From contig CAWCUS010000003.1 in NCBI GenBank assembly GCA_963798845.1, positions 96,001 through 160,000 of the forward strand: a DNA stretch of 64,000 bases, written 5' to 3'. The translations under genes were made by a program, and so were the position numbers. This stretch comes from an uncultured Gemmatimonadales bacterium. GTDB taxonomy: Bacteria > Gemmatimonadota > Gemmatimonadetes > Longimicrobiales > RSA9. Below, piece by piece: positions 8,695-62,241 of the stretch. The notes under the pieces were generated by a model, which had not been told where the DNA came from, ran no database searches, and was given only the letters and a program-made list of their open reading frames with translations. How positions within the stretch are numbered: position 1 is the first letter of the stretch; each line of letters opens with the position of its first letter.

Positions 8695-10023
8695 ATGGTA
8701 ACCGCCTCCCGGCCCCAGGCCCCCACGCTTCCGCGCGAACGGTGGTTCACGAGCGAAGACTGGTGGTCTGTCATTCTGGGCCTTTTCCTGCTGGCCGCCT
8801 GCTGGGCGGCCTTCGTGTTGCGCGCGCCGCTCACCACGCTGGGCAGGGCGAAGCCGACTGCGTGGCCGGCCCACCCGCTCGGCCCCCACTTCGCCGAGAC
8901 CTGGCCGGCGTACGTGGCGATGCTGGCGGTGCTCACCGTTCTGACGACCGGCGCGGTGTACGTCATGACGGGGAAGGCGCGGAACTACGTCCTCGGCTTC
9001 CTCGTGCTGTTCGCGGCGTCCACGCTGGTGATGATCCTGGGGGCGCAGGAGCAGCTGAAGACCTACGGCCTCGAGACCGCGTTCTGGGCGCTGGTGATCG
9101 GCCTCGCCGTGGGCAACACCATCCACCTCCCCGTGTGGTTCCAGGCCGCAGCCGGCCGGACGGAGTTCTTCATCAAGACGGGGATCATCCTGCTCGGCGC
9201 CCAGCTCTCCTTCAACGTCATCATCGCCGGTGGCGTGTGGGGGTTCCTGGAAGCGCTGCTCATCGTCTCCGCCGGCTTCACCACCGCCTTCTTCATCGCC
9301 AAGCGTATGGGCTACGACAACCGCTTCGCCGCCGTGCTGGGCGCCGGCGGCTCGGTATGCGGCGTCTCGGCTGCCATCGCCGTCGGCGGGGCCGTGAAGG
9401 CGAACGAGAAGCAGGTCGGCTACGTCATTTCCCTTGTCGTGCTCTACGCGCTCGTGCTCATCTTCCTCCTCCCCGCCATCTCCCGCGGGATCGGGCTCAG
9501 CGAGGTGGTCGCAGGCGCCTGGATCGGAGGCTCCGAGCTCGCAGACGCCGCCGGCCTCGCCTCCGCCGCCATGATCTCCGAGAAGGCGGTCCAGGCCTTC
9601 ACGCTGGTCAAGCTCAACCGCGACGTCATGATCGGCTTCCTCTGCTTCCTGTTCGCCTACCTCGCCGTCACGCGGTGGGACGTCAAGGAGTCCGGCACCA
9701 AGCCGAGCCCGAGGGTCATCTGGGACCGCTTCCCCAAGTTCGTCCTTGCCTTCCTGGTCACCTCCATCGTGATCACCGCCCTCGACAGCAGCATCGGCCC
9801 GGACGTCGCCACCTACATCGTCGCTCCACTGGGCACCATTCGCGGCTGGCTCTTCACCATCGCCTTCCTCTGCATCGGCCTGAACACCCGTATCGAGGAC
9901 GTCCGCGCCATGGGCGCCAAGCCCATCATCGCGTTCACCACGGTCGTGCTGGTCAACGTCAGCGTCGGCTTCATCCTCGCCAACCTCTTCTTCGGCGGCA
10001 TCATCGCCGCGCCGCTCAAGTAG
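8695..10023 (+). CDS. Putative sulfate exporter family transporter (YeiH/UPF0324)
   Basis: Multi-pass membrane protein with EDWWSV, EFFIKTGIILLGA, GGSVCGVSAAIA, GAWIGGSE and VKLNRD. Confidence 0.85.
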   Translation: MVTASRPQAPTLPRERWFTSEDWWSVILGLFLLAACWAAFVLRAPLTTLGRAKPTAWPAHPLGPHFAETWPAYVAMLAVLTVLTTGAVYVMTGKARNYVLGFLVLFAASTLVMILGAQEQLKTYGLETAFWALVIGLAVGNTIHLPVWFQAAAGRTEFFIKTGIILLGAQLSFNVIIAGGVWGFLEALLIVSAGFTTAFFIAKRMGYDNRFAAVLGAGGSVCGVSAAIAVGGAVKANEKQVGYVISLVVLYALVLIFLLPAISRGIGLSEVVAGAWIGGSELADAAGLASAAMISEKAVQAFTLVKLNRDVMIGFLCFLFAYLAVTRWDVKESGTKPSPRVIWDRFPKFVLAFLVTSIVITALDSSIGPDVATYIVAPLGTIRGWLFTIAFLCIGLNTRIEDVRAMGAKPIIAFTTVVLVNVSVGFILANLFFGGIIAAPLK

Positions 10024-10206: not shown

Positions 10207-11742
10207 TTGGAGGCGACGCAGGCGGTTGCGGGGGACGGGAGGGGGAACCCGAGGCCGGCGTCCGAGCGGAAAGCGGACGAAGGGGGTCCCGCGGGCGCGG
10301 AGCGCGCGCTGATGGCGCGTCCGGAGCTGAGCATTCGGACGCGGATCATGGGCGTGTTCGCGCTGCTATTCGTTCTGTGCACCACCATCACGGTGGCGGC
10401 GGTGGTGTTCCTGTCGGCCTTCCAGGCCAAGATCCGGTTCCTGGAGAACGCCGGGAGCTATTCCTTCGAGATCGAGGAAGCGCGGCGCAACGAGAAGAAT
10501 TTCTTCCTGTACGGGACGGGTCTTCCGGAGGCGCTTGCGAGCGCGACGCTGGCGCAGAGCCACCTGGAGCGGAACGTGGACCAGATCCGCTCGGTGGTGG
10601 GTGGTGCGAAGTACGAGGAGATGGAGCGAAGTCTCGCGCGCTACCGAAGCCTGCTGGAGGAGCTGGTCCGACTGGAGGAAGGCGCGGAGAGGGCGACGGC
10701 GTCGTCGTCCCGGGGGATCGAGGTGAGACTGCGGACCGAAGGCGCGCAGCTGCTGAACGACGCCGAGGAAATGATCGCCGGCGAGCGGTCGGCGGTGTCT
10801 GCGATGCTGCACACCTCCATGCTCGCGGCGTTCGCTTTCCTGGGGTTGATGCTGCTTCTGATGGTGGTGTTCGCGGGGTTCGTGATCCGGACGGTGGTGC
10901 ACCCGCTGGAGCGGTTCATGGATTACATCGAGCGGATCGGCGCCGGGAACTACGAGCCGATCCAGCCGGTGCGGCGGTTCCGGGACGAGTTCTCCTCCCT
11001 GGCGCTGGCGTTCAACCGGATGCTGGGGGAGTTCGTGACGCACCAGGAGCAACTGGTGCAGTCGGCGAAAATGGCTGCGGTGGGGACGCTGACGTCGGGG
11101 ATCGCGCACGAGCTGAACAACCCGCTGAACAACATCGGGCTCACGGTGGAGGCGCTGCTGGACGACCTCGACGCCTACCCGGAGGAGGACAAGCGGCGCA
11201 TGCTGGAGCAGGCGTACACGCAGGTGGAGCGGGCGAGCACCACCGTGCGGAACCTGCTGGACTTCACGCGCAAGGACCGCTCCGCCTTCACCACGGTGTC
11301 GGTGGCGAAGGTGGTGGCTTCGGTGCTGCGACTGGTGCAGAACGAGGCGCTGCTGGGCGGCGTGGAGTTCGAGAGCTCGATCCCCGGTGACCTTCCCCCG
11401 GTGCGGGGCAACCCGCACGACCTCGAGCAGGTGTTCCTGAACCTCTGCCTCAACGCGATCCAGGCGATGCCGGACGGCGGCCGGGCGGAGGTCACGGCCG
11501 TGGCGGAGGGCGAGGAGGTGAGGGTGGATGTCGCCGATACCGGTGCCGGGATCGCGCCGGAGCACCTGGATGAGATCTTCGATCCGTTCTTCACGACGAA
11601 GGAGCCGGGAGAGGGCACGGGCCTGGGACTGTCCGTGAGCCACAGCATCATCGAGCAGCACCGGGGCCGGATCACCGTGGCCAGCGAGGTCGGGAAGGGA
11701 ACGACGTTCTCCGTATACCTGCCGGCGGCGGTCGGGAAGTGA
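10207..11742 (+). CDS. Membrane sensor histidine kinase (2 TM, HAMP, HisKA, HATPase)
   Basis: H-box GIAHELNNPL, N-box QVFLNLCLNA, DTGAGI, FDPFFTTK and GTGLGL. Alternative start ATG 10312. Confidence 0.92.
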   Translation: MEATQAVAGDGRGNPRPASERKADEGGPAGAERALMARPELSIRTRIMGVFALLFVLCTTITVAAVVFLSAFQAKIRFLENAGSYSFEIEEARRNEKNFFLYGTGLPEALASATLAQSHLERNVDQIRSVVGGAKYEEMERSLARYRSLLEELVRLEEGAERATASSSRGIEVRLRTEGAQLLNDAEEMIAGERSAVSAMLHTSMLAAFAFLGLMLLLMVVFAGFVIRTVVHPLERFMDYIERIGAGNYEPIQPVRRFRDEFSSLALAFNRMLGEFVTHQEQLVQSAKMAAVGTLTSGIAHELNNPLNNIGLTVEALLDDLDAYPEEDKRRMLEQAYTQVERASTTVRNLLDFTRKDRSAFTTVSVAKVVASVLRLVQNEALLGGVEFESSIPGDLPPVRGNPHDLEQVFLNLCLNAIQAMPDGGRAEVTAVAEGEEVRVDVADTGAGIAPEHLDEIFDPFFTTKEPGEGTGLGLSVSHSIIEQHRGRITVASEVGKGTTFSVYLPAAVGK

Positions 11743-11765
11743 ATCTGCAGCTTGAGTGAAGCGAT

Positions 11766-12692
11766 ATGAATCATCTGGCGATCTATCTCCCCGTTGCGGG
11801 GAGCGCGGTGAGCATCCCGCTCCTGATCGGTCTCGGGGCCGTGGTGGGGTTCATGTCCGGGCTGTTCGGGGTGGGCGGCGGCTTCCTGATGACGCCGCTG
11901 CTCATCATGATCGGGATCCCACCCACGGTGGCGGCCGCCTCGGACTCGAACCAGATCGTGGCCGCGTCGTCGTCGGGGACGTACGCCCACGCCCGCGCGG
12001 GATCCGTGGACACGCCAATGGGGCTGCTGCTCCTCGTGGGGGGCATCGCGGGTGGCTCGCTGGGCGTCGTGCTGATCAAGTTCCTGCGGGCCATGGGGAA
12101 CGCCGACTTCGTGATCACGGTGACATACGTGGTGATGCTCGGCGGGATCGGCGCCTACATGTTCGTGGAGAGCCTGCGCAGCATGCGGACGGGCCCCGAC
12201 GTACGGGAGGTCGCGGCGAAGCCGTCGATGTACGCTCGGGTGGTCCAGGCGCTGCCGTGGAGGATCCGATTCCGCCGCTCGAACGTGCAGCTGTCGGTGC
12301 TGATGCCTCTGCTGCTCGGCGTTCTGGTGGGCACCCTGGCCGCGATCATGGGTGTGGGAGGCGGCTTCATCATGGTCCCGGTCATGGTATACCTGCTTCG
12401 CATGCCGATGCACGTGGTGGTCGGAACCAGCCTCTTCCAGATCCTCTTCACGTGCATCAACGTCACGGTCCTCCAGGCGACGCTCAACCACACGGTGGAC
12501 TTCATCCTCGCCCTCTTTCTCCTCATTGGCTCCGTGGTGGGCGCGCAGCTCGGAGCGCTGGTGAGCAAGCGGCTGAAGGCGGACCAGCTCAAGATCCTCA
12601 TGGCCATCATCGTCCTGGTCGTCACGGGCAAGATGCTCCTGGGGCTGGTCCTGCCGCCGGAGTTCCTGGTCAGTTACGCGGGAGGCCACTGA
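11766..12692 (+). CDS. TauE/SafE (TSUP) family sulfite/sulfate transporter
   Basis: Repeated GLFGVGGGFLMTP / IMGVGGGFIMVP motifs and VVGTSLFQI. Confidence 0.9.
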   Translation: MNHLAIYLPVAGSAVSIPLLIGLGAVVGFMSGLFGVGGGFLMTPLLIMIGIPPTVAAASDSNQIVAASSSGTYAHARAGSVDTPMGLLLLVGGIAGGSLGVVLIKFLRAMGNADFVITVTYVVMLGGIGAYMFVESLRSMRTGPDVREVAAKPSMYARVVQALPWRIRFRRSNVQLSVLMPLLLGVLVGTLAAIMGVGGGFIMVPVMVYLLRMPMHVVVGTSLFQILFTCINVTVLQATLNHTVDFILALFLLIGSVVGAQLGALVSKRLKADQLKILMAIIVLVVTGKMLLGLVLPPEFLVSYAGGH

Positions 12693-13582
12693 TGCCTGGC
12701 CAACGGATGTCCACGGCCGCGGGCGTGCTCGCCGCCTGCTGCGTGGCCGTCGCGATCGTCGTCCCCGCCCCCTCGCGGGTGTCGGCGCAGGAGCCGGGCG
12801 CGACGGCGGCGCCCGACCAGGACACGACCCGCGGGCCGGTGGTGGAACGGGCGCACGAGCTGCCCGGGGAGACGGCTGCCGCCGCGGTCGGTTCCGGCGC
12901 GGTCGTGGTGGAGCCGGCCGAGATCGTGGCCGGGATGTTCTACGCCGGGGCCACCATCCACGTGAGCGCGGTGGTCCCGCAGGGTGCGGCCGTGACGGTA
13001 CTCTGCCACAGCGAAGGTCACCCGCTGACCCTGAAGCGGAAGGGCAAGGCGCTCGGGCTGCTCTGGTTGAACGTGGGCGACGTGTCCTTCGAGGATGTCC
13101 CGACCGCGTACCTGCTGGCCACGTCGCGGCCCCTGACGTCGCTGGCGCCGGATTCCGTGCTCGAGCAGCTCGACCTCGGGTTCGTGGCGCTCGCCTCGCG
13201 CTGCGACGCGGACGCCTCGGACCCTGTACTTTTCAGCGAGCTGGTACGTCTGAAGCAGAAGGAGCGGTTGTGGACGGTGGCGGAGAACACGGTGGCAGTC
13301 CAGCCGGCAGAAGGCGACGCCGGGCTGGCCACGACCGACATCACCCTGCCCCCCAAGGCGGGCCCAGGCGAGTACGAAGTGCTGGTGTACGCCTTCCAGG
13401 ACGAGCGGCCGGAGCTCATCGGGAGCGCGCGGCTCCGCATCCGGCAGGCGGGCGTGACTGGGTTCATCACCGACCTCGCTACGGACCACGGGCTTCTGTA
13501 CGGAATCCTCGCGGCGACCGTGGCGATCGCCGTGGGCCTGCTCACGGGTCTCGTCTTCGGGATGGGCTCGAAGGGGCACTGA
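12692..13582 (+). CDS. TIGR02186-like periplasmic protein with C-terminal TM anchor (TauE partner)
   Basis: Signal peptide, LKRKGKALGLLWLN, LP.KA.PGEYEV and a C-terminal TM helix. TGATG coupling to the TauE gene. Confidence 0.75.
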   Translation: MPGQRMSTAAGVLAACCVAVAIVVPAPSRVSAQEPGATAAPDQDTTRGPVVERAHELPGETAAAAVGSGAVVVEPAEIVAGMFYAGATIHVSAVVPQGAAVTVLCHSEGHPLTLKRKGKALGLLWLNVGDVSFEDVPTAYLLATSRPLTSLAPDSVLEQLDLGFVALASRCDADASDPVLFSELVRLKQKERLWTVAENTVAVQPAEGDAGLATTDITLPPKAGPGEYEVLVYAFQDERPELIGSARLRIRQAGVTGFITDLATDHGLLYGILAATVAIAVGLLTGLVFGMGSKGH

Positions 13583-13589
13583 GAAGGAG

Positions 13590-16574
13590 ATGATGCTGGG
13601 GAGCGTGCGCGCGCTGTTCGGCCGCCGCGGGGCGGATTCCGCCGAGAGGATCCGGAAGAAGCTGACGACCTTCCGGGACCTGGTGGAGAAGAACGACCGC
13701 GTGCTGGAGCTCATCGCCGACGCAGGCGAGAAGCTGGGCGGCGAGTACGTGTTCGACACGAAGTATCTGGACGACCTCGTCCGGGACCTGAAGAGCGCCG
13801 TCCACGGGGTGGTCGAGGACCTCAACACCCTCACCGGCAACCGCTACCCGGAACTGCTCCAGGTCGTGGCGTCCCTCGACGCACGCGTCCGCGCGGCGCT
13901 GGAATGCCGCACCCGAATTCCCGACGGCCCCTACATCGTCCCGGTGGAGGAAGCCGGCTTCGAGCAGGTGGAGGTCGTGGGGGAGAAGCTCGGCCGACTG
14001 GGCGAGATGCAGACCCGGCTGGACTGCCGGATCCCGGATGGGTTCGTGGTCACGACGCGCGGCTGTCGGGACCTGCTCGAACAGGCGGGGGTCCTCGACG
14101 CCGCGGAGTCGCTCCGCTCGCGCCTGGGCGAAGACGGAGCGGCGCTGGAGTCGGAAGCGCTGGAGCTGCAGGCCCGCGTCCTTTCCGCCTCGGTTCCGCG
14201 TGACGTGGCCCGGAGCATCCGGCGCGAGGTGGACCGGCTCCAGGCTCGCCAGCCCGGAGCGCTCTTCGCCGTGCGCTCCAGCGCGGCGGAGGAGGACGGA
14301 GCGCTCACGTTCGCCGGCCAGTACGAGACGGTGCTCGGCGTCGATGCCGACGACGTGGTCGACGCGTACCAGCAGGTGGTGGCGAGCCTCTTCTCGCCCA
14401 ACGTGATCCGCTATCAGCAGCACCACCGTCTTCCGCCCGGCTGCGGTCTGATGGCGGTCGGCTGCCTTTGCATGGTCCCGGCGCGGGCGAGCGGCGTCGT
14501 CTACACCCTGAACCCTTCGGCCGCGGCCGCCCGGGTCCAACTCGTGACCTCAACCTGGGGCCTCGGCAAGGCCGTCGTCGAGGGCGAGGCGCCCGTGGAC
14601 CGGTTCGAGGTGCTGCGGGAGCCGGGCTACCCGGTGGCCGAGACCCGCCTGGCTTACAAGTCGTGGAAGTACGTGGCCCGTCCGGGCCGTGGGACGGTGC
14701 GGGAGCCGGTGCCGGAAGAGCAGCGCGGAGCGCCGTCGCTCACGCCGGCCCAGGTTTCGGAGCTGGCGGACATCGCCTGCCGGATCGAGCGCTACATGAA
14801 GGCGGCCCAGGACATCGAGTGGGCCATCGACGACGAAGGCCGCCTGTTCATCCTCCAGGCGAGGCCGCTCAGCATCCCGGCCGACCGGGACCACGAGCGT
14901 CAGGACCTGTCCGACGTCGTCGCCCGCTACCCCGTCCTGCTGCGCGGGCGAGGAGACGTGGCCTGCCGCGGGATCGGGATCGGCCGCGTCCACGTGGTCG
15001 AGCACGAGGCGACCCCCGGCGACGTCCCTCCCGGCGCCGTGCTGGTGGCACGGACCGCGACGCCCCGGCTCGGCGGGGCGCTGGCAGGGGTGAGCGCGGT
15101 CGTCACCGACCTCGGCAGCGCCACCGGCCATTTCGCAGCCGTCGCCCGCGATTTCCGCGTCCCCACCATCGTCTCCACCGGGGTCGCGACGCGCACGCTG
15201 CTGGAGGGGATGGAGGTGACGGTCGACGCCGAAGAGAACGTGGTCTACGAGGGCCGAATCGACGAGCTGCTCCGGCACCAGCTGCTCATGCGCTCGTCCT
15301 TCGAGGACACGAACGAGTTCCGTCTCCTGCGCCGCGTGCTGCGGACCATTGCCCCGCTCGGACTTCGCGACCCGCAGAGCTCCGGGTTCTCGACCTCCCA
15401 GTGCCGCACCTACCACGACGTGATCCGCTTCGCCCACGAGAAGGCCATCGCGGAGCTCACGGACATCGGGTGGGTCAAGGCGACCGGCGACCAGTCGCAC
15501 CTCCGCCGACTCGACCTGCCGATCCCGCTCGACCTGATCCTCATCGATCTCGGGGGGGGGTTCCGCGTCCGCGCCGGCCACGATACCGCGAGCCTCGATG
15601 ACCTCACCTCACGCCCGCTGCTGCCGCTCCTCGAAGCCCTCACGGCCGAGGGCATCTGGGAGACCGCCCCCGCCGACATGGACATGGACGGCTTCATGTC
15701 CAGCGCGACCCGCTCCATGGCACTCACCGGGCCGCTGGCGAGCCGGCCGACCCAGAACCTCGCCATCGTGGGCGGACGCTACCTGCACCTCAGCCTCCGC
15801 CTGGGCTACCACTTCAACATCGTCGACGCCCACCTCGGGGACACCCCGGCGGACAACTACATCTATTTCCGCTTCGCCGGCGGCGTGACGGAGCTGACCC
15901 GGCGCTCGCGCCGCGCAACACTGCTCAAACAGATCCTCGAGGACCACGGCTTCGTGACCGAGGGAGGCGAGGATCTGGTCATCGGACGCGTGAAGGGCCT
16001 CGCCCCCGACATCATGGAAGAGCGCATGCGCATGCTGGGGCGGCTCATCGGTTTCACGCGGCAGCTGGACGTGTTCCTCAGAAACGACACGCTCGTGGAC
16101 CGCTACGTGGAGCGGTTCATGGGCCGGGCAACACCCCTGGACGACGGGACTTCCGAAAACGGAATGGAGAACGCCATGAGCAGCACTGCCGACGTGTTGG
16201 TGCTGGACGACGAGCCGATGGTGGCTGAGCGTCTGAAGGACCACCTGGACCGGAAGGGCTATCAGGTCGAGGTGTTCACCGATAGCCAGACCGCCATCGA
16301 TCGCCTCGCCGTGCAGCGCTTCGACGTGGTCATCACGGATCTCAAGATGGCCGGGCCGACCGGGCTGGACGTCCTTCGGTTCGTGCGGGACAACAGCTTC
16401 GGGACACAGGTCATCATCATCACCGGATACGGCTCGATGGACGCGGCGAGGAAGGCGGAATACACCGGCGCCTTCGATTTCGTGAACAAGCCGTTCAGCA
16501 TGAAGACGCTCGAAACCATGACCCGCAAGGCCGCCAGGAAGGCCCGGAAGCTCCACGCCAAGGAGCCTCTGTGA
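13590..16574 (+). CDS. PEP-synthase-like protein (ATP-grasp + phospho-His swivel domain + unknown domain) fused to a C-terminal receiver domain
   Basis: VGEKLGRLGE, FAVRSSA.EED..FAGQYET, QDIEWA and LQARP. Swivel motif GSATGHFAAVARDF. REC motifs LDDE, ITDLKM, IITG and NKP. Confidence 0.88.
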   Translation: MMLGSVRALFGRRGADSAERIRKKLTTFRDLVEKNDRVLELIADAGEKLGGEYVFDTKYLDDLVRDLKSAVHGVVEDLNTLTGNRYPELLQVVASLDARVRAALECRTRIPDGPYIVPVEEAGFEQVEVVGEKLGRLGEMQTRLDCRIPDGFVVTTRGCRDLLEQAGVLDAAESLRSRLGEDGAALESEALELQARVLSASVPRDVARSIRREVDRLQARQPGALFAVRSSAAEEDGALTFAGQYETVLGVDADDVVDAYQQVVASLFSPNVIRYQQHHRLPPGCGLMAVGCLCMVPARASGVVYTLNPSAAAARVQLVTSTWGLGKAVVEGEAPVDRFEVLREPGYPVAETRLAYKSWKYVARPGRGTVREPVPEEQRGAPSLTPAQVSELADIACRIERYMKAAQDIEWAIDDEGRLFILQARPLSIPADRDHERQDLSDVVARYPVLLRGRGDVACRGIGIGRVHVVEHEATPGDVPPGAVLVARTATPRLGGALAGVSAVVTDLGSATGHFAAVARDFRVPTIVSTGVATRTLLEGMEVTVDAEENVVYEGRIDELLRHQLLMRSSFEDTNEFRLLRRVLRTIAPLGLRDPQSSGFSTSQCRTYHDVIRFAHEKAIAELTDIGWVKATGDQSHLRRLDLPIPLDLILIDLGGGFRVRAGHDTASLDDLTSRPLLPLLEALTAEGIWETAPADMDMDGFMSSATRSMALTGPLASRPTQNLAIVGGRYLHLSLRLGYHFNIVDAHLGDTPADNYIYFRFAGGVTELTRRSRRATLLKQILEDHGFVTEGGEDLVIGRVKGLAPDIMEERMRMLGRLIGFTRQLDVFLRNDTLVDRYVERFMGRATPLDDGTSENGMENAMSSTADVLVLDDEPMVAERLKDHLDRKGYQVEVFTDSQTAIDRLAVQRFDVVITDLKMAGPTGLDVLRFVRDNSFGTQVIIITGYGSMDAARKAEYTGAFDFVNKPFSMKTLETMTRKAARKARKLHAKEPL

Positions 16575-16614
16575 TCACTCGAAGTCGCGAAGCGCACGGA
16601 GGGGGAGCAACCCC

Positions 16615-16992
16615 ATGACCAAGACCCCCAAAAAGGTGCTGCTGCTGGACGACGAGCCCGTGGTCTGCGAACGCCTGAAGCCCGCCCTCGAGAAGCTCGG
16701 CTTCTACGTGGAGTCCTACACCGAGAGCCAACCGGTGGTCGACCGCGTCCTCGAGGAGAGGTTCGACGTCCTGGTCACGGACCTGAAGATGCAGAAGCCC
16801 GATGGCCTGGAGATCATGAACTTCGTCCGCGAGCACTCGCCGGCCACCAAGGTGATCATCATCACCGGCTTCGCCACCGTCGAGACGGCGACGGAGACCC
16901 TCAAGGGCGGGGCCGTGGACTTCATCGCCAAGCCGTTCAAGATCCGGACGCTCTGCGACCGGATCGTTCAGCTCACCCGGGAAGAGGCGTGA
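16615..16992 (+). CDS. Stand-alone response regulator receiver protein
   Basis: LLDDE, VTDLKM, IITGF and IAKPF. 125 aa. Confidence 0.92.
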   Translation: MTKTPKKVLLLDDEPVVCERLKPALEKLGFYVESYTESQPVVDRVLEERFDVLVTDLKMQKPDGLEIMNFVREHSPATKVIIITGFATVETATETLKGGAVDFIAKPFKIRTLCDRIVQLTREEA

Positions 16993-17017: not shown

Positions 17018-17830
17018 TCAGACCGTGTAGTCCGGCGCCGCCAGGTTCTCGCGGTCCACCCGCTCGACGCCGGGCACGCTCCCCGCGACCTCGATCACCG
17101 CGTCCACCAGCGACGGAGGCCGCAGCCGGCCCCGCAGGTACACCGCCCCGTCCTGTGCGCGCAGCCGAACCTCGGCGGAGAACGTCCGCTCGTCCGCCGC
17201 CAGCGCCGCCTGCACGCGGCTCGCCAGACCCAGGTCCGCCATTGCCTTCCGGCTCTCGGACGTCGGCTTGAACCGCGGCGACCGCGACGCCAGTACCACC
17301 AGCGCGACCGCGTCCTCCACCTCCAGCGTACGCAGGTTGATGCACAGGTCGTACAGCCGAGGGTCGAGCCAGTCCACGCCGTACAGGAAGCGCGTCCACT
17401 TCTCCCGCTGCCGGTCCAGCTTCTCGATCCGCTCCTCGGCTTCTTCCTCGCTGAGATCCGAGCGCTCCTGCAGCACTCGGTCCCGGAAGTCCGCCGGCGC
17501 GATCAGCCGCACCCGCACGACGTGCGAAATCCCGGGCAGCAGCAGGTGCCCCGCGTTGCCGTGGTACACCAGACGACCCGCCTGCGCGCGCTCCACCAGC
17601 GCCGCCTGCACGTAGGCGATGTACCGCCGCCGCTCGTGCTGCACCCGGTCCCACAGCCGCGGCGGCTCCAGCAGCGCCTTCCGCAGCGCATCCTCCGAGG
17701 CACCGAAGCGCGTCGCTTCATGCACCACTTCCTCACGGCTCACCACCGTATAGCCGAGCTCGGCAGCCACCGCCTCCGCCAGCTCCTGCCCTCCGCTCCC
17801 AGAGCCCCGGGATATCGTAATGATCGACAT
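17018..17830 (-). CDS. Cytidylate-kinase-like family protein with C-terminal BON-like domain
   Basis: MSIITISRGSGSGG, VYHG, VRLIAP and YDLCIN. C-terminal DGAVYLRG...VPGVERV. Confidence 0.8.
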   Translation of the reverse strand: MSIITISRGSGSGGQELAEAVAAELGYTVVSREEVVHEATRFGASEDALRKALLEPPRLWDRVQHERRRYIAYVQAALVERAQAGRLVYHGNAGHLLLPGISHVVRVRLIAPADFRDRVLQERSDLSEEEAEERIEKLDRQREKWTRFLYGVDWLDPRLYDLCINLRTLEVEDAVALVVLASRSPRFKPTSESRKAMADLGLASRVQAALAADERTFSAEVRLRAQDGAVYLRGRLRPPSLVDAVIEVAGSVPGVERVDRENLAAPDYTV

Positions 17831-17929
17831 AGCGCTTCGTTGCCGCGGCCTCCCTGCCGGCCCCCGATCGGGGCCGGGCCAATTCGTTCCTGCGTTCACG
17901 AATCACTGTGGCCGCTGCCGCGCCCCGCG

Positions 17930-18370
17930 TCAAGACGCGGCAGGCGCGGCGGACAGCAGCTTCTCCACGGCGGCCAGGAGCTGGTCGCGGTCGATGGGCT
18001 TGGGGAAGAAGCCGTCCGGCGGCGGGACGGCGTCGCTCTTCCGGATGAACTTTTCATAGCCGTACGGGTCGCCGCCATAGCCGGTGACGGCGGTGATGAT
18101 GACCACGGGAACTCCGCTGAGGGCGGGGTCGTTCTTCACAGTCCGGTAGAAGCGTGTTCCCGAGGCCCTGGGCATGGAGATGTCCAGGGTGACGAGGTCG
18201 GGCTTGTGGCTGCGCAACATCTCCAGCGCCGCCTCGCCGTCGCCGGCGATGAGCGTCTCGTAGCCGGTGTCGCGGAAAAGCATGTCTAGATAGTCGACGA
18301 CATCCTGCTCGTCATCGACGATGAGGATCTTCCTGGCCGGCCCTTGCGCGGCCTGGTCCGGTGCGGGCAT
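17930..18370 (-). CDS. Stand-alone receiver protein (Rrf1-like position downstream of the hmc-like genes)
   Basis: IVDDE, LDISMP, IITA and PKP. Confidence 0.9.
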   Translation of the reverse strand: MPAPDQAAQGPARKILIVDDEQDVVDYLDMLFRDTGYETLIAGDGEAALEMLRSHKPDLVTLDISMPRASGTRFYRTVKNDPALSGVPVVIITAVTGYGGDPYGYEKFIRKSDAVPPPDGFFPKPIDRDQLLAAVEKLLSAAPAAS

Positions 18371-18413
18371 GGCTCGCCTCCTTGCTGCGGTATCCAAGCG
18401 ACCCGGTCCGCCG

Positions 18414-18944
18414 TCAGGCGCCGGGCGTGGTGCGTTTCAGCGCCTCCAGGGCGCGTCTGAGGGCGTGGGGCTCCGCCTGGGTGAGCTGGCGGCGCACCTC
18501 GTCCTGGAGGGTGATGCGATCCTCGTCGCCGGGGCTCTCTTCGAGGCCGAGGGCGCGCTGGACGCAGCGGACGTAGTCCAGCGGCTTGACGGGCTTCTCG
18601 AGGTAGACGCCGGGCCCCGATATGACGCGGCTCTCGACAATGTCCTCGAGCTCGGCGCGTCCGAGCTCATCGCGGGCGTGGGCGGTGACGATGAGGACGG
18701 GGATGCGGGAGAGCGCGTGGTCCTTTCGGAGCTCGTAGAGGAGCTTGTGGCCGCTCTTCCCGGGCATGACGAGGTCGAGGGAAATGAAGTCGGGTGGCTG
18801 CTGGCGGATGAGGTCGAGGGCCTCGTCGCCGTCCGAGGCGGTTCGGACCTGAAATCCTGCGTCCCTCAGGATCTGAGCGAGGTAATCGCGGACGTCCGGC
18901 TCATCATCCACCACCAGCACGGTCCTGTCCTGTGGCCGCTCCAT
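18414..18944 (-). CDS. Receiver protein with short helical C-terminal extension
   Basis: VVDDE, LDLVMP, IVTA and EKP. Confidence 0.9.
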   Translation of the reverse strand: MERPQDRTVLVVDDEPDVRDYLAQILRDAGFQVRTASDGDEALDLIRQQPPDFISLDLVMPGKSGHKLLYELRKDHALSRIPVLIVTAHARDELGRAELEDIVESRVISGPGVYLEKPVKPLDYVRCVQRALGLEESPGDEDRITLQDEVRRQLTQAEPHALRRALEALKRTTPGA

Positions 18945-18948
18945 GGCG

Positions 18949-20088
18949 TCATCCCTTCGTGTGGTTCTGCCCGTCGGCCCCGTCGGCCTGTTCGGCGGCC
19001 GCGGAGGTGGGCAGCGTGTTGCGAGGCAGCTCGATCCGGAACACCGATCCTTCTCCCTCGTGAGAGGTGAAGGAGATCCGACCCCCGTGCTGGTGCACGA
19101 GGCGGCGTGTGGTCAGGAGCCCGAGGCCGGTGCCACGGTCCGAGCCTTTCGTCGTGAAGAACTTGGAAAACACCTTCCGGCTCAGCTCGTAGTCCATGCC
19201 CTTGCCGTTGTCCGCCACCTCGTAGACCAGGACGCCGTCGTTCTCGGAGACGGTCACGCGGACCACGAACTCGCGGTCCTTGTCGGCCACGGTGCACGCG
19301 TCGATGGCGTTGGAAACCAGGTTGGCCAGGGACGTATGGATCCCGGCCTCGTCCAGCAGCGCCGGGGCGATGCCGTCCTGCGGCTCGAAGTCGAGGCGGA
19401 TGCCGGCGCGGGCGGCACCATCGCGGAACAGATCGACAGCGTTCCTCGCCGGCAGTACCGGGTCGGTGAGGGCGACCACGGCGGGGCGTCCCTTGGCGAA
19501 GTCCAGGAACTCCTTCATGAAGGCGGAGATCCGGTTGACGTTCTGCTCCAGGGTGGTCCAGCCGCGGGCGATGCGCTCGTCGTCGCCGAGCTGGATACCG
19601 GTGTTCACGGCATACATGCCGCCTTCCAGGCCCATGAGGATGTTCTTCACCCCGTGGGCGACGCCGGCCACGGTCTCGCCCACGGCGGCGAGGCGCTCGG
19701 CTTCCCGCTTCTCCCGCTCGAGGCGCTTCACGACGGAGATGTCGGTGGACATCTCAATGACGTAGGGGATGTCGCCGTTGGGTCGGACCAGGGGGACCAT
19801 ATGGACCAGGTAGTCGATCTCCCGGCCATTTCCCATCACGCCCTCCTCCTCCTGCTCCCGGATGGAGCCGTCCGCGAAGGTGGCCAGGGCGGCGCACCGA
19901 AGGCAGGGCTCGTCGCGCCCCTTGTAGACCTGGTAGCAGGGCCGCCCCTGCCAGTCCCCGAACTCCGACTCGAAAGCCAGGTTCGCGTCCACGATCCCGT
20001 AATTGCGCCCGATGACGCTGATGGCGACGGGCACCTCGTCGTAGAGGTGCGTGTGGAGCCAGTCCCGGATCTCGTCCGTGTCCATCAT
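18949..20088 (-). CDS. Cytoplasmic PAS histidine kinase
   Basis: PAS domain with CY.VYKGRDEPCLRC. H-box GVAHGVKN, NLVSNA, DNGKGM, FFTTK and GTGLGL. Start ATG 20088. Confidence 0.9.
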   Translation of the reverse strand: MMDTDEIRDWLHTHLYDEVPVAISVIGRNYGIVDANLAFESEFGDWQGRPCYQVYKGRDEPCLRCAALATFADGSIREQEEEGVMGNGREIDYLVHMVPLVRPNGDIPYVIEMSTDISVVKRLEREKREAERLAAVGETVAGVAHGVKNILMGLEGGMYAVNTGIQLGDDERIARGWTTLEQNVNRISAFMKEFLDFAKGRPAVVALTDPVLPARNAVDLFRDGAARAGIRLDFEPQDGIAPALLDEAGIHTSLANLVSNAIDACTVADKDREFVVRVTVSENDGVLVYEVADNGKGMDYELSRKVFSKFFTTKGSDRGTGLGLLTTRRLVHQHGGRISFTSHEGEGSVFRIELPRNTLPTSAAAEQADGADGQNHTKG

Positions 20089-22193
20089 GGCAGCGATCCT
20101 CCTTCCGTGCCGGGCTGCCGCTCGCGCGTGGCGGCGCGTGCCACGTCCGTGGCTGTCGGGCCGGGCGAGCGCAGGGGCGTGGATGCGGCTGTGGTCCGGG
20201 CGGGCTCGAGCTGCTGGAGGGCGCCGGAACGGTCCGCGTCGTGGCACGTTTCGCAGCGTGCCAGATTCTCGGGATGCTCCCCCGGCTCCGAGCGCAGGGC
20301 CTCCTCGTGGCACGCGATGCACACGCCGTGCATGGCGTCCATGTAGCCCGGGGCGGCGCGCCACCGCTCCTGCGCCGCCGGGATGATCGCGCTCTGCCCC
20401 GCGTCGCGAGCGTGGCACTCCATGCACGCCGTCGACGTGGCGTAGGTCCTGGTCGCGATGCCCGGGGCGTGGCACTGCTGGCAGCCGTCGTTCCCTGCCA
20501 GCGCCTCCACGTGCGACGCATGGTCGAAGACGGCGGTGCTGTCGTACATGTCCCGGTGGCACGCGCCACAGCGGCTCGCTTCCTCGAGCGGGAGATTCAG
20601 GTGATGGCAGGTTCCGCAGCCGTCGTCGCCGCCAGCGCGCTCCACGTGGGCGTCGTGGTCGAACAGGACGGCGTTGCGGTCCCGACCCCCATCGATGAGC
20701 AGCAGCACGGCCTCGCCCGGATCCATCATCCCCGGTCCACCCGTGCCGCCAGCCGCCTCCGTTTCACCCGCTCCGCCGGGGACGTTCGATGCCGGCGATA
20801 CCGCGTGCGCGTGCAGCGTCTCGCTCGCGGCGCCGGCCAGCGCCAGCAGCCTCGCCTGCCCCGGCCGCTCCGAAATGGTCCCGGCCACGGAGCGCGCGTC
20901 CGCCACGGGTACCGGGCGCGGGCGCGCCCCCGAAAGCGGAAGGAACAGGAGCGCGATCACGAAGCCGGCGAGCGCCATCCCGCTGTTCAGGTGGGGGCCC
21001 GCGAGGCGCGGCGGGAGGAGCCCGTGCACGGTGGTGGGCTCGAAGCTCCGAGGCCTGGCGCGGACGGTGTCGGCGGAAACGTCGTCGTACACGCGCAGGT
21101 GCTCGACGAAGAAGATGAAGACCAGCATGAACGCCGACACGATCCCGACGCTCACGGCGAGCTCTTCCCAGCTGGGGAAGTACGGCATGTCCGCAGGCCT
21201 CGCGAACGCCACGACGGAAACGTCCAGCCGGTACAGGATCATGCCGGCCACGGTCATGGCGCCCGCCACGCCCACGCCGCGGATGCTGTTCCGGACCCGC
21301 GGGATGGCCATGAGCACCACGGGGATCCCGGCACTGAGGGCGAGCTCGGCCACGAACAGCACCCCGTGCCAGGACGGCTGAAGCGCACTGACCAGCACGC
21401 CGCGGGCCGCCAGGTCGCCCAGCCGCAGGGCCAGGTACAGCGTGAGCACCACGGCCGCCGCGGCGCCCAGGCCGGACATCTGGCGCCGGTGAAGCGCGTG
21501 GCCGAGGAACCGGTGGGCGAACATGGACTCTGTCACCACCATCGACAGACCCAGAGCTACGGCGGAGACGAAGAAGAGCACGTAGATGATCGGCGAGTAC
21601 CAGAGCGGGTGCAGCCGGTAGGGCGTGATCAGGAAGAGGGAGCCCAGCGACGACTGGTGCAGCGTGGAAAGCATGATCCCCAGGATGACCAGCGGGATCG
21701 TCACCTTCCGGAGCGCGGCCAGAGTCGTGCGGAACGGCCGCCAGCGGAAGAGGGGGTGCTCCAGGATCGCGGGAGCGAACTCCAGCGCCAGGACGGTCAG
21801 GTAGAGCATGACGCACATGGCGACTTCGAACAGCACGGAGTGGTGCTGCCAGTGGAACAGCGGGTGCCAGATGCGCCAGGGGAGACCGAGGTCGTAGAGG
21901 AGCCCCACCGCCACGGCCGCGTAGCCGAGGAACGCCGTGAGCACCGCGGGGCGCGCGAAGGCGTGGTAGCGCTCCAGGTGGAAGATGTACACGGTGGCGG
22001 CCATGACGAACCCGCCAGCCGCCAGCGCAACGCCGGACATGACGTCGAAGCCGATCCAGAGGCCCCACGGGGTCGCGTCGGACAGGTGGGTCACCGCCCC
22101 GAGCCCCCGGGTGTAGCGCACCATGCTGACGGCGACGAGCACGCCGACCAGCGTCCACAATACCAGCTTCAGCCGCACCAGCCGCTCACGCAT
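20085..22193 (-). CDS. HmcC/HybB (NrfD-type) membrane subunit fused to a C-terminal multiheme cytochrome c (6 CxxCH)
   Basis: PWGLWIGFDV..GVALAAGGF, DLGLPWRI, SVLFEV and STLHQSSLG. Then CGTCH, CGACH, CQQCH, CMECH, CIACH and CETCH, with c3-like FDH..H motifs. Confidence 0.88.
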   Translation of the reverse strand: MRERLVRLKLVLWTLVGVLVAVSMVRYTRGLGAVTHLSDATPWGLWIGFDVMSGVALAAGGFVMAATVYIFHLERYHAFARPAVLTAFLGYAAVAVGLLYDLGLPWRIWHPLFHWQHHSVLFEVAMCVMLYLTVLALEFAPAILEHPLFRWRPFRTTLAALRKVTIPLVILGIMLSTLHQSSLGSLFLITPYRLHPLWYSPIIYVLFFVSAVALGLSMVVTESMFAHRFLGHALHRRQMSGLGAAAAVVLTLYLALRLGDLAARGVLVSALQPSWHGVLFVAELALSAGIPVVLMAIPRVRNSIRGVGVAGAMTVAGMILYRLDVSVVAFARPADMPYFPSWEELAVSVGIVSAFMLVFIFFVEHLRVYDDVSADTVRARPRSFEPTTVHGLLPPRLAGPHLNSGMALAGFVIALLFLPLSGARPRPVPVADARSVAGTISERPGQARLLALAGAASETLHAHAVSPASNVPGGAGETEAAGGTGGPGMMDPGEAVLLLIDGGRDRNAVLFDHDAHVERAGGDDGCGTCHHLNLPLEEASRCGACHRDMYDSTAVFDHASHVEALAGNDGCQQCHAPGIATRTYATSTACMECHARDAGQSAIIPAAQERWRAAPGYMDAMHGVCIACHEEALRSEPGEHPENLARCETCHDADRSGALQQLEPARTTAASTPLRSPGPTATDVARAATRERQPGTEGGSLP

Positions 22194-25568: not shown

Positions 25569-25731
25569 GCAAGCGCCGGACCCGCTGCGGCACGGGCGGG
25601 GAAAATATCGTTAAGTAGTTGGGATACAGCGCGTTGGCGGCACGCCTGTGATCCGGGATGGGGCGCGGCTGCGCGGCCTTTGGTGCAACAGTGGAATGAT
25701 CGGTTGTTTCAGGTGTTACAGACCTGGAACA
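25569..25731 (-). promoter_or_regulatory. Putative sigma54 promoter with IHF-like site and upstream activator sequence for the hmc-like operon
   Basis: Minus strand GG-TCCGGCGCTT-GC (25582-25569). AT-rich CAA-N4-TTA near 25612-25624. Inverted repeat TGTTTCAGGT-N7-ACCTGGAACA at 25705-25731. Confidence 0.55.
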
Positions 25732-27092
25732 TGCCCGGGCGGTGCGCTGCGGAAGCCGCCTCCCTCGATCCCGTACTTCTTCATCTTGCGCCAGAGGGTG
25801 GTGCGGCTGATGCGGAGTTCGTGGGCGGTTCGCCCCTGGTGTCCGTGGTTGCGGCTGAGGGCGAGGCGAATGGCGTCGGCCTCGCTGTCTTCGAGGGGGC
25901 GGGCGGGGCGGTGCTGGGTGGCGGTTTCGCCCTGGATGTCCTCGGGGAGGTGGCGGACGTCGATGAAGCGGTTGTGGCAGAGGACGAACGCGTACTCGAT
26001 GATGTTCTCGAGCTCGCGCACGTTGCCGGGGAAGTCGTGGCGCATGAGGATCTCCATGACCGCCGGCGTGACGCCCTGGATGCTCTTGGCCTGCTTGGCG
26101 TTGAAGCGTTCGACGAAGTGGGCGACGAGGTGAGGGATGTCCTCGCGGCGCTTCAGGAGCGGCGGTATGGAGAGGCGGACGACGGCGAGGCGGAAGTAGA
26201 GGTCGTCGCGGAACTGCGAGTCGGCGACGAGGCGGGCGAGGTCCTGGTTGGTGGCGGCGACGATGCGGATGTCGGCGCGGATGGTCTGGACGCTGCCCAG
26301 GGGGCTGTACTCCCGCTGCTGCACGAGCCGGAGCAGCTTCACCTGAGTCTCGTGGGGGAGCTCCCCGATCTCGTCGAAGAAGATGGTGCCGCCCTGCGCC
26401 TGCGTGATCCGCCCCGGCTTGTCCTGACGGGCGTCGGTGAAGGCGCCACGCTTGTAGCCGAAGAGCTCCGACTCGAAGAGGTTGGTCGGGAGCGTTCCGC
26501 AGTTCACGACGACGTACGGCCGGTCGCGACGAGGGCTGAGGTTGTGGATCGCGCGGGCGAGCAGCTCTTTCCCGGACCCGCTCGGCCCCTCGATGAGTAC
26601 CGTGCTGTCGCTGGCGGCGATGTCGGGGAGGAGCGCGAAGATCTTCTGGAACGCCTCGCTTCGCCCGATGATGTCCTCGAACGTGTAGCGGCCGTGGATC
26701 TCGCGGCGCAGCTGCTCGAGGGTGGACATGTCGCGGAACGTCTCGACGGCCCCCAGCAACGTGCCGTCGCGGGCACGGAGCACCGCACTGCTCACCGCGA
26801 TGGGAACGGAGCGGCCGCGCCGTGTGAGGATGCGGGCTGGCCGGTCGATGACCTCGTGGTCCTGCTCGAGGGACTCACGGAGCGGACACGCGCACTCGCA
26901 CAGGTCGGAGTGGAACACGTCGGAGCAGCGCCGTCCGACGGCGCGCTCGGCGGACACGCCCGTGATGCGGGCGGCGGCCGGGTTGAACGACGTGATCCGC
27001 CATTCCCGGTCGACCGTGAAAACGCCCTCCGTGACGCAGCGGAGGACCGTCTCGAAGAACCGGTTCTCGTCTCCCAGGTCCTGTTTGGCCAT
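25716..27092 (-). CDS. PAS-domain sigma54-dependent enhancer-binding protein (OrpR-like)
   Basis: GPSGSGKEL, ESELFG..RGAFTDA, FFDEIGE, FPGNVREL and a Fis-type HTH. PAS has C-x8-C-x3-C. Start ATG 27092. Confidence 0.92.
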   Translation of the reverse strand: MAKQDLGDENRFFETVLRCVTEGVFTVDREWRITSFNPAAARITGVSAERAVGRRCSDVFHSDLCECACPLRESLEQDHEVIDRPARILTRRGRSVPIAVSSAVLRARDGTLLGAVETFRDMSTLEQLRREIHGRYTFEDIIGRSEAFQKIFALLPDIAASDSTVLIEGPSGSGKELLARAIHNLSPRRDRPYVVVNCGTLPTNLFESELFGYKRGAFTDARQDKPGRITQAQGGTIFFDEIGELPHETQVKLLRLVQQREYSPLGSVQTIRADIRIVAATNQDLARLVADSQFRDDLYFRLAVVRLSIPPLLKRREDIPHLVAHFVERFNAKQAKSIQGVTPAVMEILMRHDFPGNVRELENIIEYAFVLCHNRFIDVRHLPEDIQGETATQHRPARPLEDSEADAIRLALSRNHGHQGRTAHELRISRTTLWRKMKKYGIEGGGFRSAPPGHVPGL

Positions 27093-27196
27093 CGGCGCCT
27101 CCCCGGCCGCTACGGCCCCCGCTCCCCGCTCCACCTCCGACTCGGTCCCCGTTGCCGGCGCGAATCGCCAGGCCGCGCCGGCGGGGTGCCCGCCGC

Positions 27197-29718: not shown

Positions 29719-29803
29719 CTCCGGAGCGCAGTGATCGTGGCGCCTGCTGAACGCCCGCGCCGCCTCTGTTCTCGACATCGCGGGCGTGCGCGCGCGTGCC
29801 CAA

Positions 29804-29821
29804 TCGTGGCAAACGTCACGA
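29804..29821. promoter_or_regulatory. Rex-type operator near the dsrM2K2-like promoter
   Basis: TCGTG-gcaaacgt-CACGA. Minus-strand TTGACG at 29854-29849. Confidence 0.65.
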
Positions 29822-29895
29822 ATAGAGCTTGCGCTGATCTCTCTCCGGCGTCAAGTCCCTCGTCCGGCGGGTGGGCGCCGGCGCAGGGCGCGCAA

Positions 29896-29913
29896 TCGTG
29901 CCAAGTGTCACGA
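29896..29913. promoter_or_regulatory. Rex-type operator upstream of rex (possible autoregulation)
   Basis: TCGTG-ccaagtgt-CACGA, adjacent to TTGACC(29917)-N17-CAGCAT. Confidence 0.65.
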
Positions 29914-30021
29914 GGGTTGACCTTTCGGCGAACAGGCACCAGCATTCACGTTGAATGGCAGAAGTCGGCCGCACGGCCGCCGGGTGGTCGCGCGGCCCTT
30001 TCACGGGAGGCTGTTTCCACA

Positions 30022-48736: not shown

Positions 48737-48793
48737 GCACCCGGGTCATCACCGTCAACCGCGCGTTGAACCACAGAACTTGAGGAGAAATCG

Positions 48794-49882: not shown

Positions 49883-50134
49883 ATGGCTGTCACCACTGAA
49901 CAGGTCGCCGACGCCATGTACCAGCTGGTGAGCGAATACCAGGGGAAGAAGAAGTTCAAGGCCCTGGACCTCACCAAGGCGATGAAGGAGAAGTTCGGCG
50001 CCGAGGCCGACCGGAACGTGTGCAAGAACGCCATCCGCAGCCTGATCGACTCGGGCCGGTGCGTCTACACGTACTTCGGCGGCAGCTACATCGAGGTTCC
50101 GCACACGGAAGGGGCAGCAGAAGGCGCCTCCTGA
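49883..50134 (+). CDS. dsrD: DsrD
   Basis: 83-aa winged-helix-like protein (GKKKFK..DL, LIDSGRCVYTYFGGSY) directly after dsrB. Confidence 0.9.
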   Translation: MAVTTEQVADAMYQLVSEYQGKKKFKALDLTKAMKEKFGAEADRNVCKNAIRSLIDSGRCVYTYFGGSYIEVPHTEGAAEGAS

Positions 50135-54054: not shown

Positions 54055-54057
54055 GCC

Positions 54058-54876: not shown

Positions 54877-54934
54877 GCGAACAATGTTCCGGCCCGTCCG
54901 CCGCAGGAGCGGCGAGCGGCCAGGAGTGAGCGAT

Positions 54935-60457: not shown

Positions 60458-60461
60458 CGAA

Positions 60462-61562: not shown

Positions 61563-61626
61563 GCCCCGGGCGCGTGAAACCCGGCTCGCGGCGAGGCAAG
61601 GGCGGTCGGCGGACAAGGAGGGCCGA

Positions 61627-62232: not shown

Positions 62233-62241
62233 GAGGCCACC

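Follow-up and report, generated by a model that had tools for sequence, protein, structure and literature searches.

A dikinase-like protein with a new domain in the acceptor position and a fused receiver, encoded in a conserved TauE transporter cassette

Introduction

What does a protein do that carries the ATP-grasp and phospho-histidine domains of a phosphoenolpyruvate (PEP) synthase, lacks the barrel that would bind pyruvate, and ends in a response-regulator receiver, and to which acceptor does it pass its phosphate? The question is raised by the open reading frame (ORF) at 13590-16574 (+) in a 64,000-nucleotide stretch of DNA from an uncultured Gemmatimonadales bacterium (the window), whose 994-amino-acid dikinase-receiver product we call P0001 (other P numbers denote homologues). 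We found that P0001 belongs to the superfamily of the PpsA, PPDK and RPH dikinases and combines a new domain at the acceptor position with new N-terminal helices and a recurrently fused receiver. Rather than being a PEP synthase, it is probably an enzyme of regulated phosphotransfer with a role tied to sulfur-anion transport.

The answer bears on more than one gene. The automatic label "pyruvate, water dikinase" wrongly credits many genomes with a gluconeogenic enzyme, and knowing the acceptor would define either a new dikinase reaction or a new signaling chemistry. It could also explain how thiosulfate and sulfite traffic is controlled in sulfate reducers and sulfur disproportionators, and why loss of a Desulfovibrio cluster makes the cells resistant to nitrate, which matters for controlling the souring of oil fields.

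A dikinase core and a receiver in one reading frame

The ORF is uninterrupted over its 994 amino acids, and its GC content at third codon positions (0.91) is that of genuine genes in the same 68% GC window. A homology search with P0001 returned 773 matches at E<=1e-3 among 8000 scored candidates, with the closest non-self relative 79% identical over the full length. Given the typical third-position composition and the hundreds of homologues, we regard the ORF as a real gene and not a chance reading frame. Pfam recognized three domains in the product, PPDK_N (PF01326) at residues 128-432 (E 5.8e-71), the PEP-utilizers mobile domain (PF00391) at residues 480-549 (E 1e-15) and Response_reg (PF00072) at residues 869-977 (E 6.5e-24), and matched no family to residues 1-127 and ~555-866. 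An earlier sequence-only reading of this DNA had described an intact ATP-grasp domain and phospho-His swivel followed in frame by an intact receiver, and these assignments were all borne out, with His514 as the swivel histidine.

The closest known relative of the core is PpsA. The structure 2ols, which shares the order of an ATP-grasp followed by a central swivel with its T-G-H motif, matched residues 115-560 of P0001 best in both sequence and fold and was also the top Foldseek match overall of a full-length AlphaFold model (built from 86 sequences; mean pLDDT 82.3, pTM 0.63). PEP synthases in the PDB matched residues 115-559 only (2ols, E 2.4e-50). Whereas PpsA continues into a C-terminal PEP/pyruvate TIM barrel, P0001 has an unrelated new domain at that point, together with an extra three-helix N terminus and the C-terminal receiver. 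The N-terminal helices (residues 2-49, 57-82 and 88-104 in the full-length model) constitute a family-specific domain that is absent from PpsA and from characterized dikinases; it gave a tblastn match in 72 of 74 related loci (L numbers; one genome per species, with the window's neighboring genes mapped onto them by tblastn). Within the 86-sequence alignment, T512 and H514 are invariant, and the catalytic motifs of ATP-grasp and swivel (T-G-H) are kept in all 86 of these swivel-bearing sequences. As a PpsA-type ATP-grasp is thus joined to an invariant T-G-H swivel, His514 is predicted to be loaded with the beta-phosphate of ATP, yielding AMP and Pi.

The domain in place of the barrel forms its own family

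We found no trace of the pyruvate/PEP-binding barrel. PF02896 was not detected in residues 555-866 even at E<=10, nor was any other Pfam family. The two PpsA equivalog models reached less than half of their cut-offs (NF005057, 298.5 bits against 598; TIGR01418, 280.6 against 739.75), and their alignment was restricted to residues 115-562 of P0001, corresponding to model positions 6-470 of 798. Searching residues 555-866 against PDB sequences gave three matches, all at E>1.5, with the single sequence as query and none with a 43-sequence profile, while the ESM Atlas yielded no usable match for the domain. Two AlphaFold models, namely a domain-only model from the 43-sequence alignment (mean pLDDT 73) and the full-length one (mostly 70-95 in this region), both showed antiparallel sheets packed on helices, in the order of three helices, a two-strand element, two helices, four antiparallel strands and a helix-strand-strand-helix-helix unit. 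This order is incompatible with a (beta-alpha)8 barrel. Upon comparing the middle-domain model with the PDB by Foldseek, we obtained no match at E<=1e-3 (best E 0.011, TM 0.20). Both the missing barrel and the unrecognized domain in its place (~290 residues, with no Pfam, PDB or fold match), as described in the sequence-only reading, thus held up. We rejected a degenerate or truncated PEP-utilizer barrel on the basis of the absent PF02896, the empty PDB profile search and the modeled strand-helix order, and we treated the fold neighbors that did appear, YbjN/chaperone-like proteins (InvB-like, DR_1245) and a DHHA1-like fold, as noise (E 0.01-0.1, TM ~0.2-0.3).

It is therefore hardly credible that P0001 is a normal PEP synthase (pyruvate, water dikinase) whose C-terminal domain has diverged. 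Such an enzyme would fit the names of the homologues ("pyruvate, water dikinase" or "PEP/pyruvate-binding domain-containing protein") and the PEP synthase structures that lead the PDB matches to the N-terminal two thirds, but the equivalog alignments that stop at residue 562, the absent barrel and gene surroundings concerned with transport and signaling, not gluconeogenesis, all speak against it.

The middle domain is the best-conserved large part of the proteins of this family. Columns with at least 95% identity in the 86-sequence alignment made up 30% of the swivel, 23-27% of the middle domain and 15% of the ATP-grasp. The invariant residues of the middle domain include C605, H609, D610, R613, H616, D653, W690, D698, S705 and T707, and further N723, H741, R761, R771, R772, R774, R775, R824, Q825 and D827. 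Because of this pattern, a catalytic or anion-binding site is likelier than a passive linker, and the conservation is of the kind seen in a working site, probably one with an anionic ligand.

A scan of 1.84 billion representative proteins with residues 555-866 as query found the domain in 1130 clusters (50% identity) at E<=1e-3 and in 864 at E<=1e-10. Among the 150 clusters listed, it is almost always C-terminal in proteins of ~830-890 amino acids. No instance of the domain without a dikinase core emerged from 15 scanned proteins of atypical length, the short forms being N-truncated: PPDK_N begins mid-profile in seven of eight carriers of ~540-570 amino acids, and four carriers of ~320 amino acids lack any Pfam domain. 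Split-gene forms of the family were considered and dismissed, the short carriers being N-truncated fragments at contig edges. A receiver is present in 36 of the best 120 full-length homologues listed, P0001 included; the others end after the middle domain, at ~850 amino acids.

One variant has lost a different part. The Desulfobaccales protein P0260 and its relatives P0398-P0403 (704-768 amino acids) lack the entire swivel/His domain: the alignment of P0260 with P0001 covers residues 28-427 and 561-844 and skips exactly residues 428-560, and PF01326 is the only entry in the precomputed Pfam annotation of P0260. The N-terminal helices, the ATP-grasp and the new domain are kept in this variant, which may be a pseudo-enzyme or may use a His domain in trans.

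A conserved cassette links the dikinase to a TauE transporter

The genes around the dikinase, which the sequence-only reading had missed, are the main clue to its function. The dikinase-receiver gene comes fourth in a closely spaced run of genes on one strand (Table 1) in which the intergenic gaps, in the order HK1-TauE-Alph_Pro_TM-dikinase-REC2, are 24, -4, 8 and 41 nucleotides, the start of Alph_Pro_TM overlapping the stop of TauE by 4 nucleotides. TauE and Alph_Pro_TM lay directly upstream of the dikinase, on the same strand, in all 68 related loci with at least 1.5 kb of upstream sequence. A kinase stood immediately upstream of TauE in 49 of 65 loci, and a kinase homologue was present within 7 kb in 47 of 47. 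A homologue of the downstream cytidylate-kinase-like + BON gene was found within 3 kb in 25 of 63 loci, and is hence frequent, not universal. The cassette occurs in about ten phyla, comprising Gemmatimonadota, Acidobacteriota, Thermodesulfobacteriota, Myxococcota, Nitrospirota, NC10, Elusimicrobiota, Armatimonadota and Fibrobacterota, as well as a Chromatiaceae metagenome-assembled genome (MAG). Scans for promoters, terminators and Rfam families returned nothing in or around the cassette of the window.

In the Desulfobulbales- and Desulfarculales-type arrangement, the order is kinase, sigma54 NtrC-type regulator, small ORF, TauE, Alph_Pro_TM, dikinase, receiver, a protein of ~280 amino acids and a tandem universal stress protein (USP). 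The last two, a conserved ~280-amino-acid protein with no Pfam match and the tandem USP, follow the receiver at L064:12930-14729, L046:12892-14664 and L068:9910-11594, and in loci of Desulfobulbales, Desulfarculales and Nitrospirota type this pair stands where the window has its cytidylate-kinase-like + BON gene. Just upstream of HK1, at 8695-10023 (+), the window encodes a PF03601 (Cons_hypoth698) membrane protein, with homologues near the cassette in L012 and L049.

The window itself is a dissimilatory sulfur island, with DsrMK-like, Rex, AprBA, Qmo/Hdr-like, Sat, DsrC, DsrMKJOP-like, DsrAB, DsrL-like and DsrN-like genes and three TauE genes. Of the 74 loci, 18 had one or more homologues of sulfur-island genes within 10 kb of the dikinase, so that the link between the cassette and sulfur metabolism is recurrent, not universal. 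The proposal that the protein senses ATP/AMP in a pathway running through Sat and Apr fared less well and remains speculation, as AprBA or Sat was found within 10 kb in only 2 of the 74 loci (L024 and L049).

Receivers accompany the dikinase and are repeatedly fused to it

The fused receiver, REC1, has a complete set of catalytic residues (D873, D874, D917, T945 and K967), and the model shows the alternating strand-helix order of a receiver at residues 868-990, with a Foldseek TMt of ~0.9 to receiver structures. In 64 aligned cassette receivers, the catalytic columns are invariant, and so is the face of the alpha1 helix (E15, V18 and R21). The survey of homologues for receiver fusion or adjacency that the sequence-only reading had suggested was informative: a receiver belonging to the same family comes immediately after the dikinase gene in 70 of 71 loci (3 further loci being cut off), either as a C-terminal fusion with a second receiver behind it (15 loci), as a separate gene with a second receiver (29) or as a single receiver (26, including the frameshift-ridden L070). 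L036 (10001-12463 and flanks) is the sole locus that has downstream sequence and no receiver within 1.5 kb.

A quick maximum-likelihood tree, built from 115 cassette receivers and 2 unrelated receivers from the window, unites the cassette receivers in one family (SH-aLRT 100). First-position receivers make up a clade of 44 rows (SH-aLRT 96) in which fused and separate forms are intermixed, and the single receivers of Desulfobulbales type make up a separate clade of 19 rows (support 100), which is joined to the first-position clade with support 93. The fused state requires at least 3 changes if the count is limited to well-supported branches, and 8 by parsimony. Following the Rosetta-stone argument, such repeated fusion and fission suggests that receiver and dikinase work in contact.

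The window contains further receivers outside the cassette. At 17930-20562 (-), convergent with it, lie REC3, REC4 and a PAS-HATPase kinase; REC3 and REC4 are unrelated to the cassette receivers (25-33% identity), and the set recurs downstream in L005, L006 and L026.

Related clusters in sulfur bacteria

A functional lead comes from Desulfovibrio. As described in the portions of Korte et al. 2014 drawn on here (PMC4001038), transposon insertions in a cluster comprising DVU0251-0245 in D. vulgaris Hildenborough and Dde_0597-0605 in D. alaskensis G20 gave strong resistance to 100-150 mM nitrate, not to nitrite. The cluster encodes a TauE-like protein, a conserved hypothetical protein, a PtxB-like protein, a PAS/HAMP kinase, a REC-only regulator, a 744-amino-acid protein with PPDK ATP-grasp and mobile domains, and a phosphatase; resistance arose when TauE, the hypothetical protein, REC or the dikinase-like gene (DVU0246 or Dde_0604) was disrupted, and single mutants in DVU0246, 0247, 0250 and 0251 confirmed it. 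We know of no other genetic data for a cluster of this composition. The authors proposed a leaky thiosulfate transporter and mentioned unpublished mild thiosulfate defects of the mutants. By this description, the Desulfovibrio cluster and window 10207-16992 have all five gene kinds in common, with the differences that in Desulfovibrio the REC gene precedes the dikinase-like gene and that the cluster additionally encodes a PtxB-like periplasmic protein and a dual-specificity phosphatase. The 744-amino-acid protein has no TIM barrel in the annotation given there, is ~110 amino acids shorter and carries no fused receiver.

In Dissulfuribacter thermophilus, the available parts of PMC13490349 report that a "PEP synthase", a "TM protein co-occurring with TauE" and TauE (locus tags 1988-1990) were higher under thiosulfate disproportionation, and the authors interpreted the rise of the "PEP synthase" as gluconeogenesis. 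In our homology searches with P0001, L064 and P0260, aimed at linking DVU0246 and Dissulfuribacter DITHS69_1988 to the family, none of the matches listed bore the name of either organism. A search of the full-text literature, with subscription-only papers and bioRxiv supplements lying outside its reach, gave nothing on the receiver fusion, the new domain, PF09608/TIGR02186 or a follow-up of the nitrate cluster.

The framing of P0001 as a dikinase with a swapped acceptor domain, already put forward in the sequence-only reading, fits two precedents. Rifampin phosphotransferase (RPH; 5hv1/5fbs) and HpeHI (9goj; PMC12167813, as far as the portions used here describe it) share the principle of a swivel His that serves an acceptor site other than pyruvate. 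The P0001 ATP-grasp superimposed on the RPH ATP-binding domain 5hv6_A with a TMt of 0.89 and on HpeI with 0.67 (Foldseek), while the sequence similarity to RPH is confined to about residues 114-428 and the rifampin phosphotransferase equivalog NF041857 scored 179.5 bits against a cut-off of 999. In contrast to P0001, where the His domain is central, RPH has its acceptor domain in the middle and its His domain at the C terminus, an order that is thus reversed, and the acceptor domains of RPH and HpeHI are unrelated to that of P0001 and come with no receiver.

Receiver-gated phosphotransfer as a tentative model

We tentatively favor a model in which kinase-phosphorylated receivers gate a dikinase that acts on an anionic acceptor or partner, and thereby control TauE-dependent transport of sulfur oxyanions. 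HK1 would sense a periplasmic or membrane signal and phosphorylate both receivers, and REC1 and REC2 would act on the dikinase through contact. The dikinase, taken to be cytoplasmic, would load His514 from the beta-phosphate of ATP, giving AMP and Pi, and this phosphate would pass to an acceptor that the Arg/His-rich new domain holds. The likely acceptor is a small anion or a partner protein. The transfer would then switch or energize the way in which TauE moves a sulfur oxyanion, for instance thiosulfate or sulfite.

That HK1 is the donor is suggested by three observations. A canonical kinase is a conserved member of the cassette. The H-box helix of its DHp domain is nearly invariant across 66 loci, and the alpha1 helix of the receivers is near-invariant too, as would be expected if the two were a conserved cognate pair. 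This pattern is also compatible with another partner, and comparing the two helices does not tell one donor from the other. At 58844-63786, moreover, the window holds a module without a dikinase, consisting of a cytidylate-kinase-like protein (537 amino acids), TauE3, REC5 and HK3 (with a HAMP domain). HK3 shares 44% identity with HK1 over 483 amino acids, and REC5 shares 56% with REC2 and 45% with REC1. Since this paralogous HK3/REC5 pair adjoins a TauE gene without a dikinase, we take HK1 as the default donor for REC1 and REC2. Modules of the HK3/REC5/TauE3 type also adjoin the dikinase cassette itself in L012, L018, L021, L024, L039 and L065. A further pair of cytidylate-kinase-like genes, followed by TauE2, lies at 53401-55933.

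Several points weigh against this model. A C-terminal receiver is typical of hybrid kinases, where it accepts the phosphate of the kinase, and not of receiver-regulated enzymes. The Desulfobulbales-type kinase is paired with a sigma54 NtrC-type regulator, possibly its only partner. The swivel-less Desulfobaccales variant implies that the middle domain need not always serve His-mediated transfer, and the Pfam, PDB, ESM Atlas and Foldseek searches of that domain gave no pointer to the acceptor. In D. vulgaris, the annotation lists the kinase gene of the nitrate cluster as a pseudogene. Growth tests of single mutants showed little or no consequence of disrupting it, against full nitrate resistance of the REC and dikinase-like mutants (PMC4001038, in the parts used); these data fit a receiver that is independent of that kinase. 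The comparison is itself limited, as we liken the Desulfovibrio and Dissulfuribacter proteins to P0001 by gene content and order, not by sequence, and the adjacency of the D. thermophilus genes is uncertain because table and text of PMC13490349 give different locus tags for one accession.

A first alternative, put forward in the sequence-only reading, is a direct relay, in which the swivel His514, loaded from ATP, would itself phosphorylate Asp917 of REC1, Asp56 of REC2 or both, making the dikinase an atypical sensor kinase. The new Arg-rich domain would then dock the acidic active-site face of the receiver or sense a ligand, and the phosphorylated receiver would act on the TauE system. The position of the receiver, after the dikinase gene in nearly every locus and at the C terminus of the protein in 15, resembles that in a kinase/regulator pair or a hybrid kinase. 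Neither the ATP-grasp motifs nor T-G-H vary. The invariance of the receiver catalytic residues and alpha1 face also implies that the partner surface must be equally conserved, and the swivel is the most conserved part of the dikinase. The strong phenotypes of the D. vulgaris REC and dikinase-like genes next to a kinase pseudogene (PMC4001038, parts used), as well as the NtrC-type partner of the Desulfobulbales-type kinase, likewise speak for it. Like hybrid histidine kinases, P0001 combines an ATP-driven phospho-His module with a C-terminal receiver that has an intact Asp pocket, with a second, free receiver nearby. Unlike them, it has no HisKA, HATPase or HPt domain by Pfam (HisKA and HATPase reside in the separate HK1), and its His sits on a PEP-utilizer swivel that is predicted to be loaded by the pyrophosphoryl mechanism (ATP to AMP and Pi).

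A relay of this kind is nonetheless rather unlikely. The cassette already includes a canonical kinase whose DHp helix is equally conserved, and the same receiver and kinase families pair without a dikinase, as in HK3/REC5 and the six loci listed above; with a canonical kinase in the operon and a dikinase-free pair elsewhere, a transfer from swivel His to Asp becomes less necessary. Our literature searches found no precedent for this transfer, and the relay leaves unexplained the roughly nine invariant Arg and three invariant His of the new domain and its conservation above that of the ATP-grasp. If true, a relay would be the more remarkable outcome, as it would constitute a new type of two-component kinase, a His-to-Asp relay without HisKA/HATPase that is intrinsically sensitive to the ATP/AMP/Pi ratio and gates TauE-type sulfur-oxyanion transport in sulfur-cycling bacteria of many phyla.

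A second alternative to receiver-gated phosphotransfer concerns the target. The dikinase could phosphorylate or gate a protein of the cassette, such as TauE, Alph_Pro_TM or the cytidylate-kinase-like or USP proteins, in a chain similar to the PEP-dependent phosphotransferase system (PTS), or could be a pseudo-enzyme scaffold that binds ATP/AMP, with the new domain as a protein-binding module. PTS Enzyme I offers a parallel in that its swivel His domain passes phosphate to a protein partner in connection with transport, but it is loaded from PEP at a TIM barrel, without an ATP-grasp, and no homologues of HPr or EII occur in the P0001 cassette. We consider this alternative distinctly unlikely. 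It would account for the strict linkage to two membrane proteins (68 of 68 loci), for the retention of the other domains in the swivel-less Desulfobaccales variant and for the single phenotype shared by the Desulfovibrio TauE, REC and dikinase-like mutants (PMC4001038, parts used), and the fold neighbors of the new domain, though not significant, are small proteins of a binding or chaperone-like type (YbjN, InvB-like, DR_1245). Against this, we saw no sign of contact with any membrane protein, those fold matches are below significance, and the retention of the catalytic motifs in every aligned swivel-bearing sequence argues for real turnover.

Features of the window

Table 1. Coordinates of the dikinase-receiver gene, its domains and residues, the cassette genes and neighboring features (window positions).
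Feature	Position	Strand	Basis or context
HK1 sensor histidine kinase: two transmembrane segments, periplasmic helical region, HAMP, HisKA, HATPase; first cassette gene	10207..11742	+	Pfam, translation
TauE/SafE-family (TSUP) anion transporter	11766..12692	+	PF01925 E 1.6e-49
Alph_Pro_TM (PF09608) protein: signal peptide, periplasmic domain, C-terminal transmembrane anchor	12689..13582	+	Pfam E 1.2e-40
Dikinase-like protein with fused receiver (P0001, 994 amino acids)	13590..16574	+	Pfam, NCBIfam, homologues, full-length model
N-terminal domain, residues 1-114, three long helices	13590..13931	+	full-length model; no Pfam match
ATP-grasp nucleotide-binding domain, residues 115-435	13932..14894	+	PPDK_N, Foldseek, PDB sequence match
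Swivel phospho-histidine domain, residues 480-552	15027..15245	+	PF00391 E 1e-15
Thr512	15123-15125	+	T512-G-H514 motif of swivel domain
Catalytic His514	15129-15131	+	T512-G-H514 motif of swivel domain
New "acceptor-position" domain, residues ~555-846	15252..16127	+	no family or fold match; invariant Arg/His-rich
Fused receiver REC1, residues 867-985	16188..16544	+	PF00072 E 6.5e-24; Foldseek
Phospho-acceptor Asp917 of REC1	16338-16340	+	receiver catalytic residue
REC2, stand-alone CheY-like receiver, 125 amino acids, D12/D56/T84/K106	16615..16992	+	paralogue of REC1, 51% identical
Cytidylate-kinase-like (PF13189) + BON protein, convergent with cassette	17018..17899	-	Pfam
Rex-like gene	29731-30732		sulfur island
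DsrAB	47495-49873		sulfur island
83-amino-acid ORF of DsrD size	49883-50134		sulfur island

The sulfur island spans 20085-53387 and includes an NrfD/cytochrome c3 fusion; its closest relatives are Gemmatimonadota MAGs. Within the island, an 852-amino-acid protein with PAS, sigma54-activator and HTH_8 domains is encoded at 25716-28274 (-).

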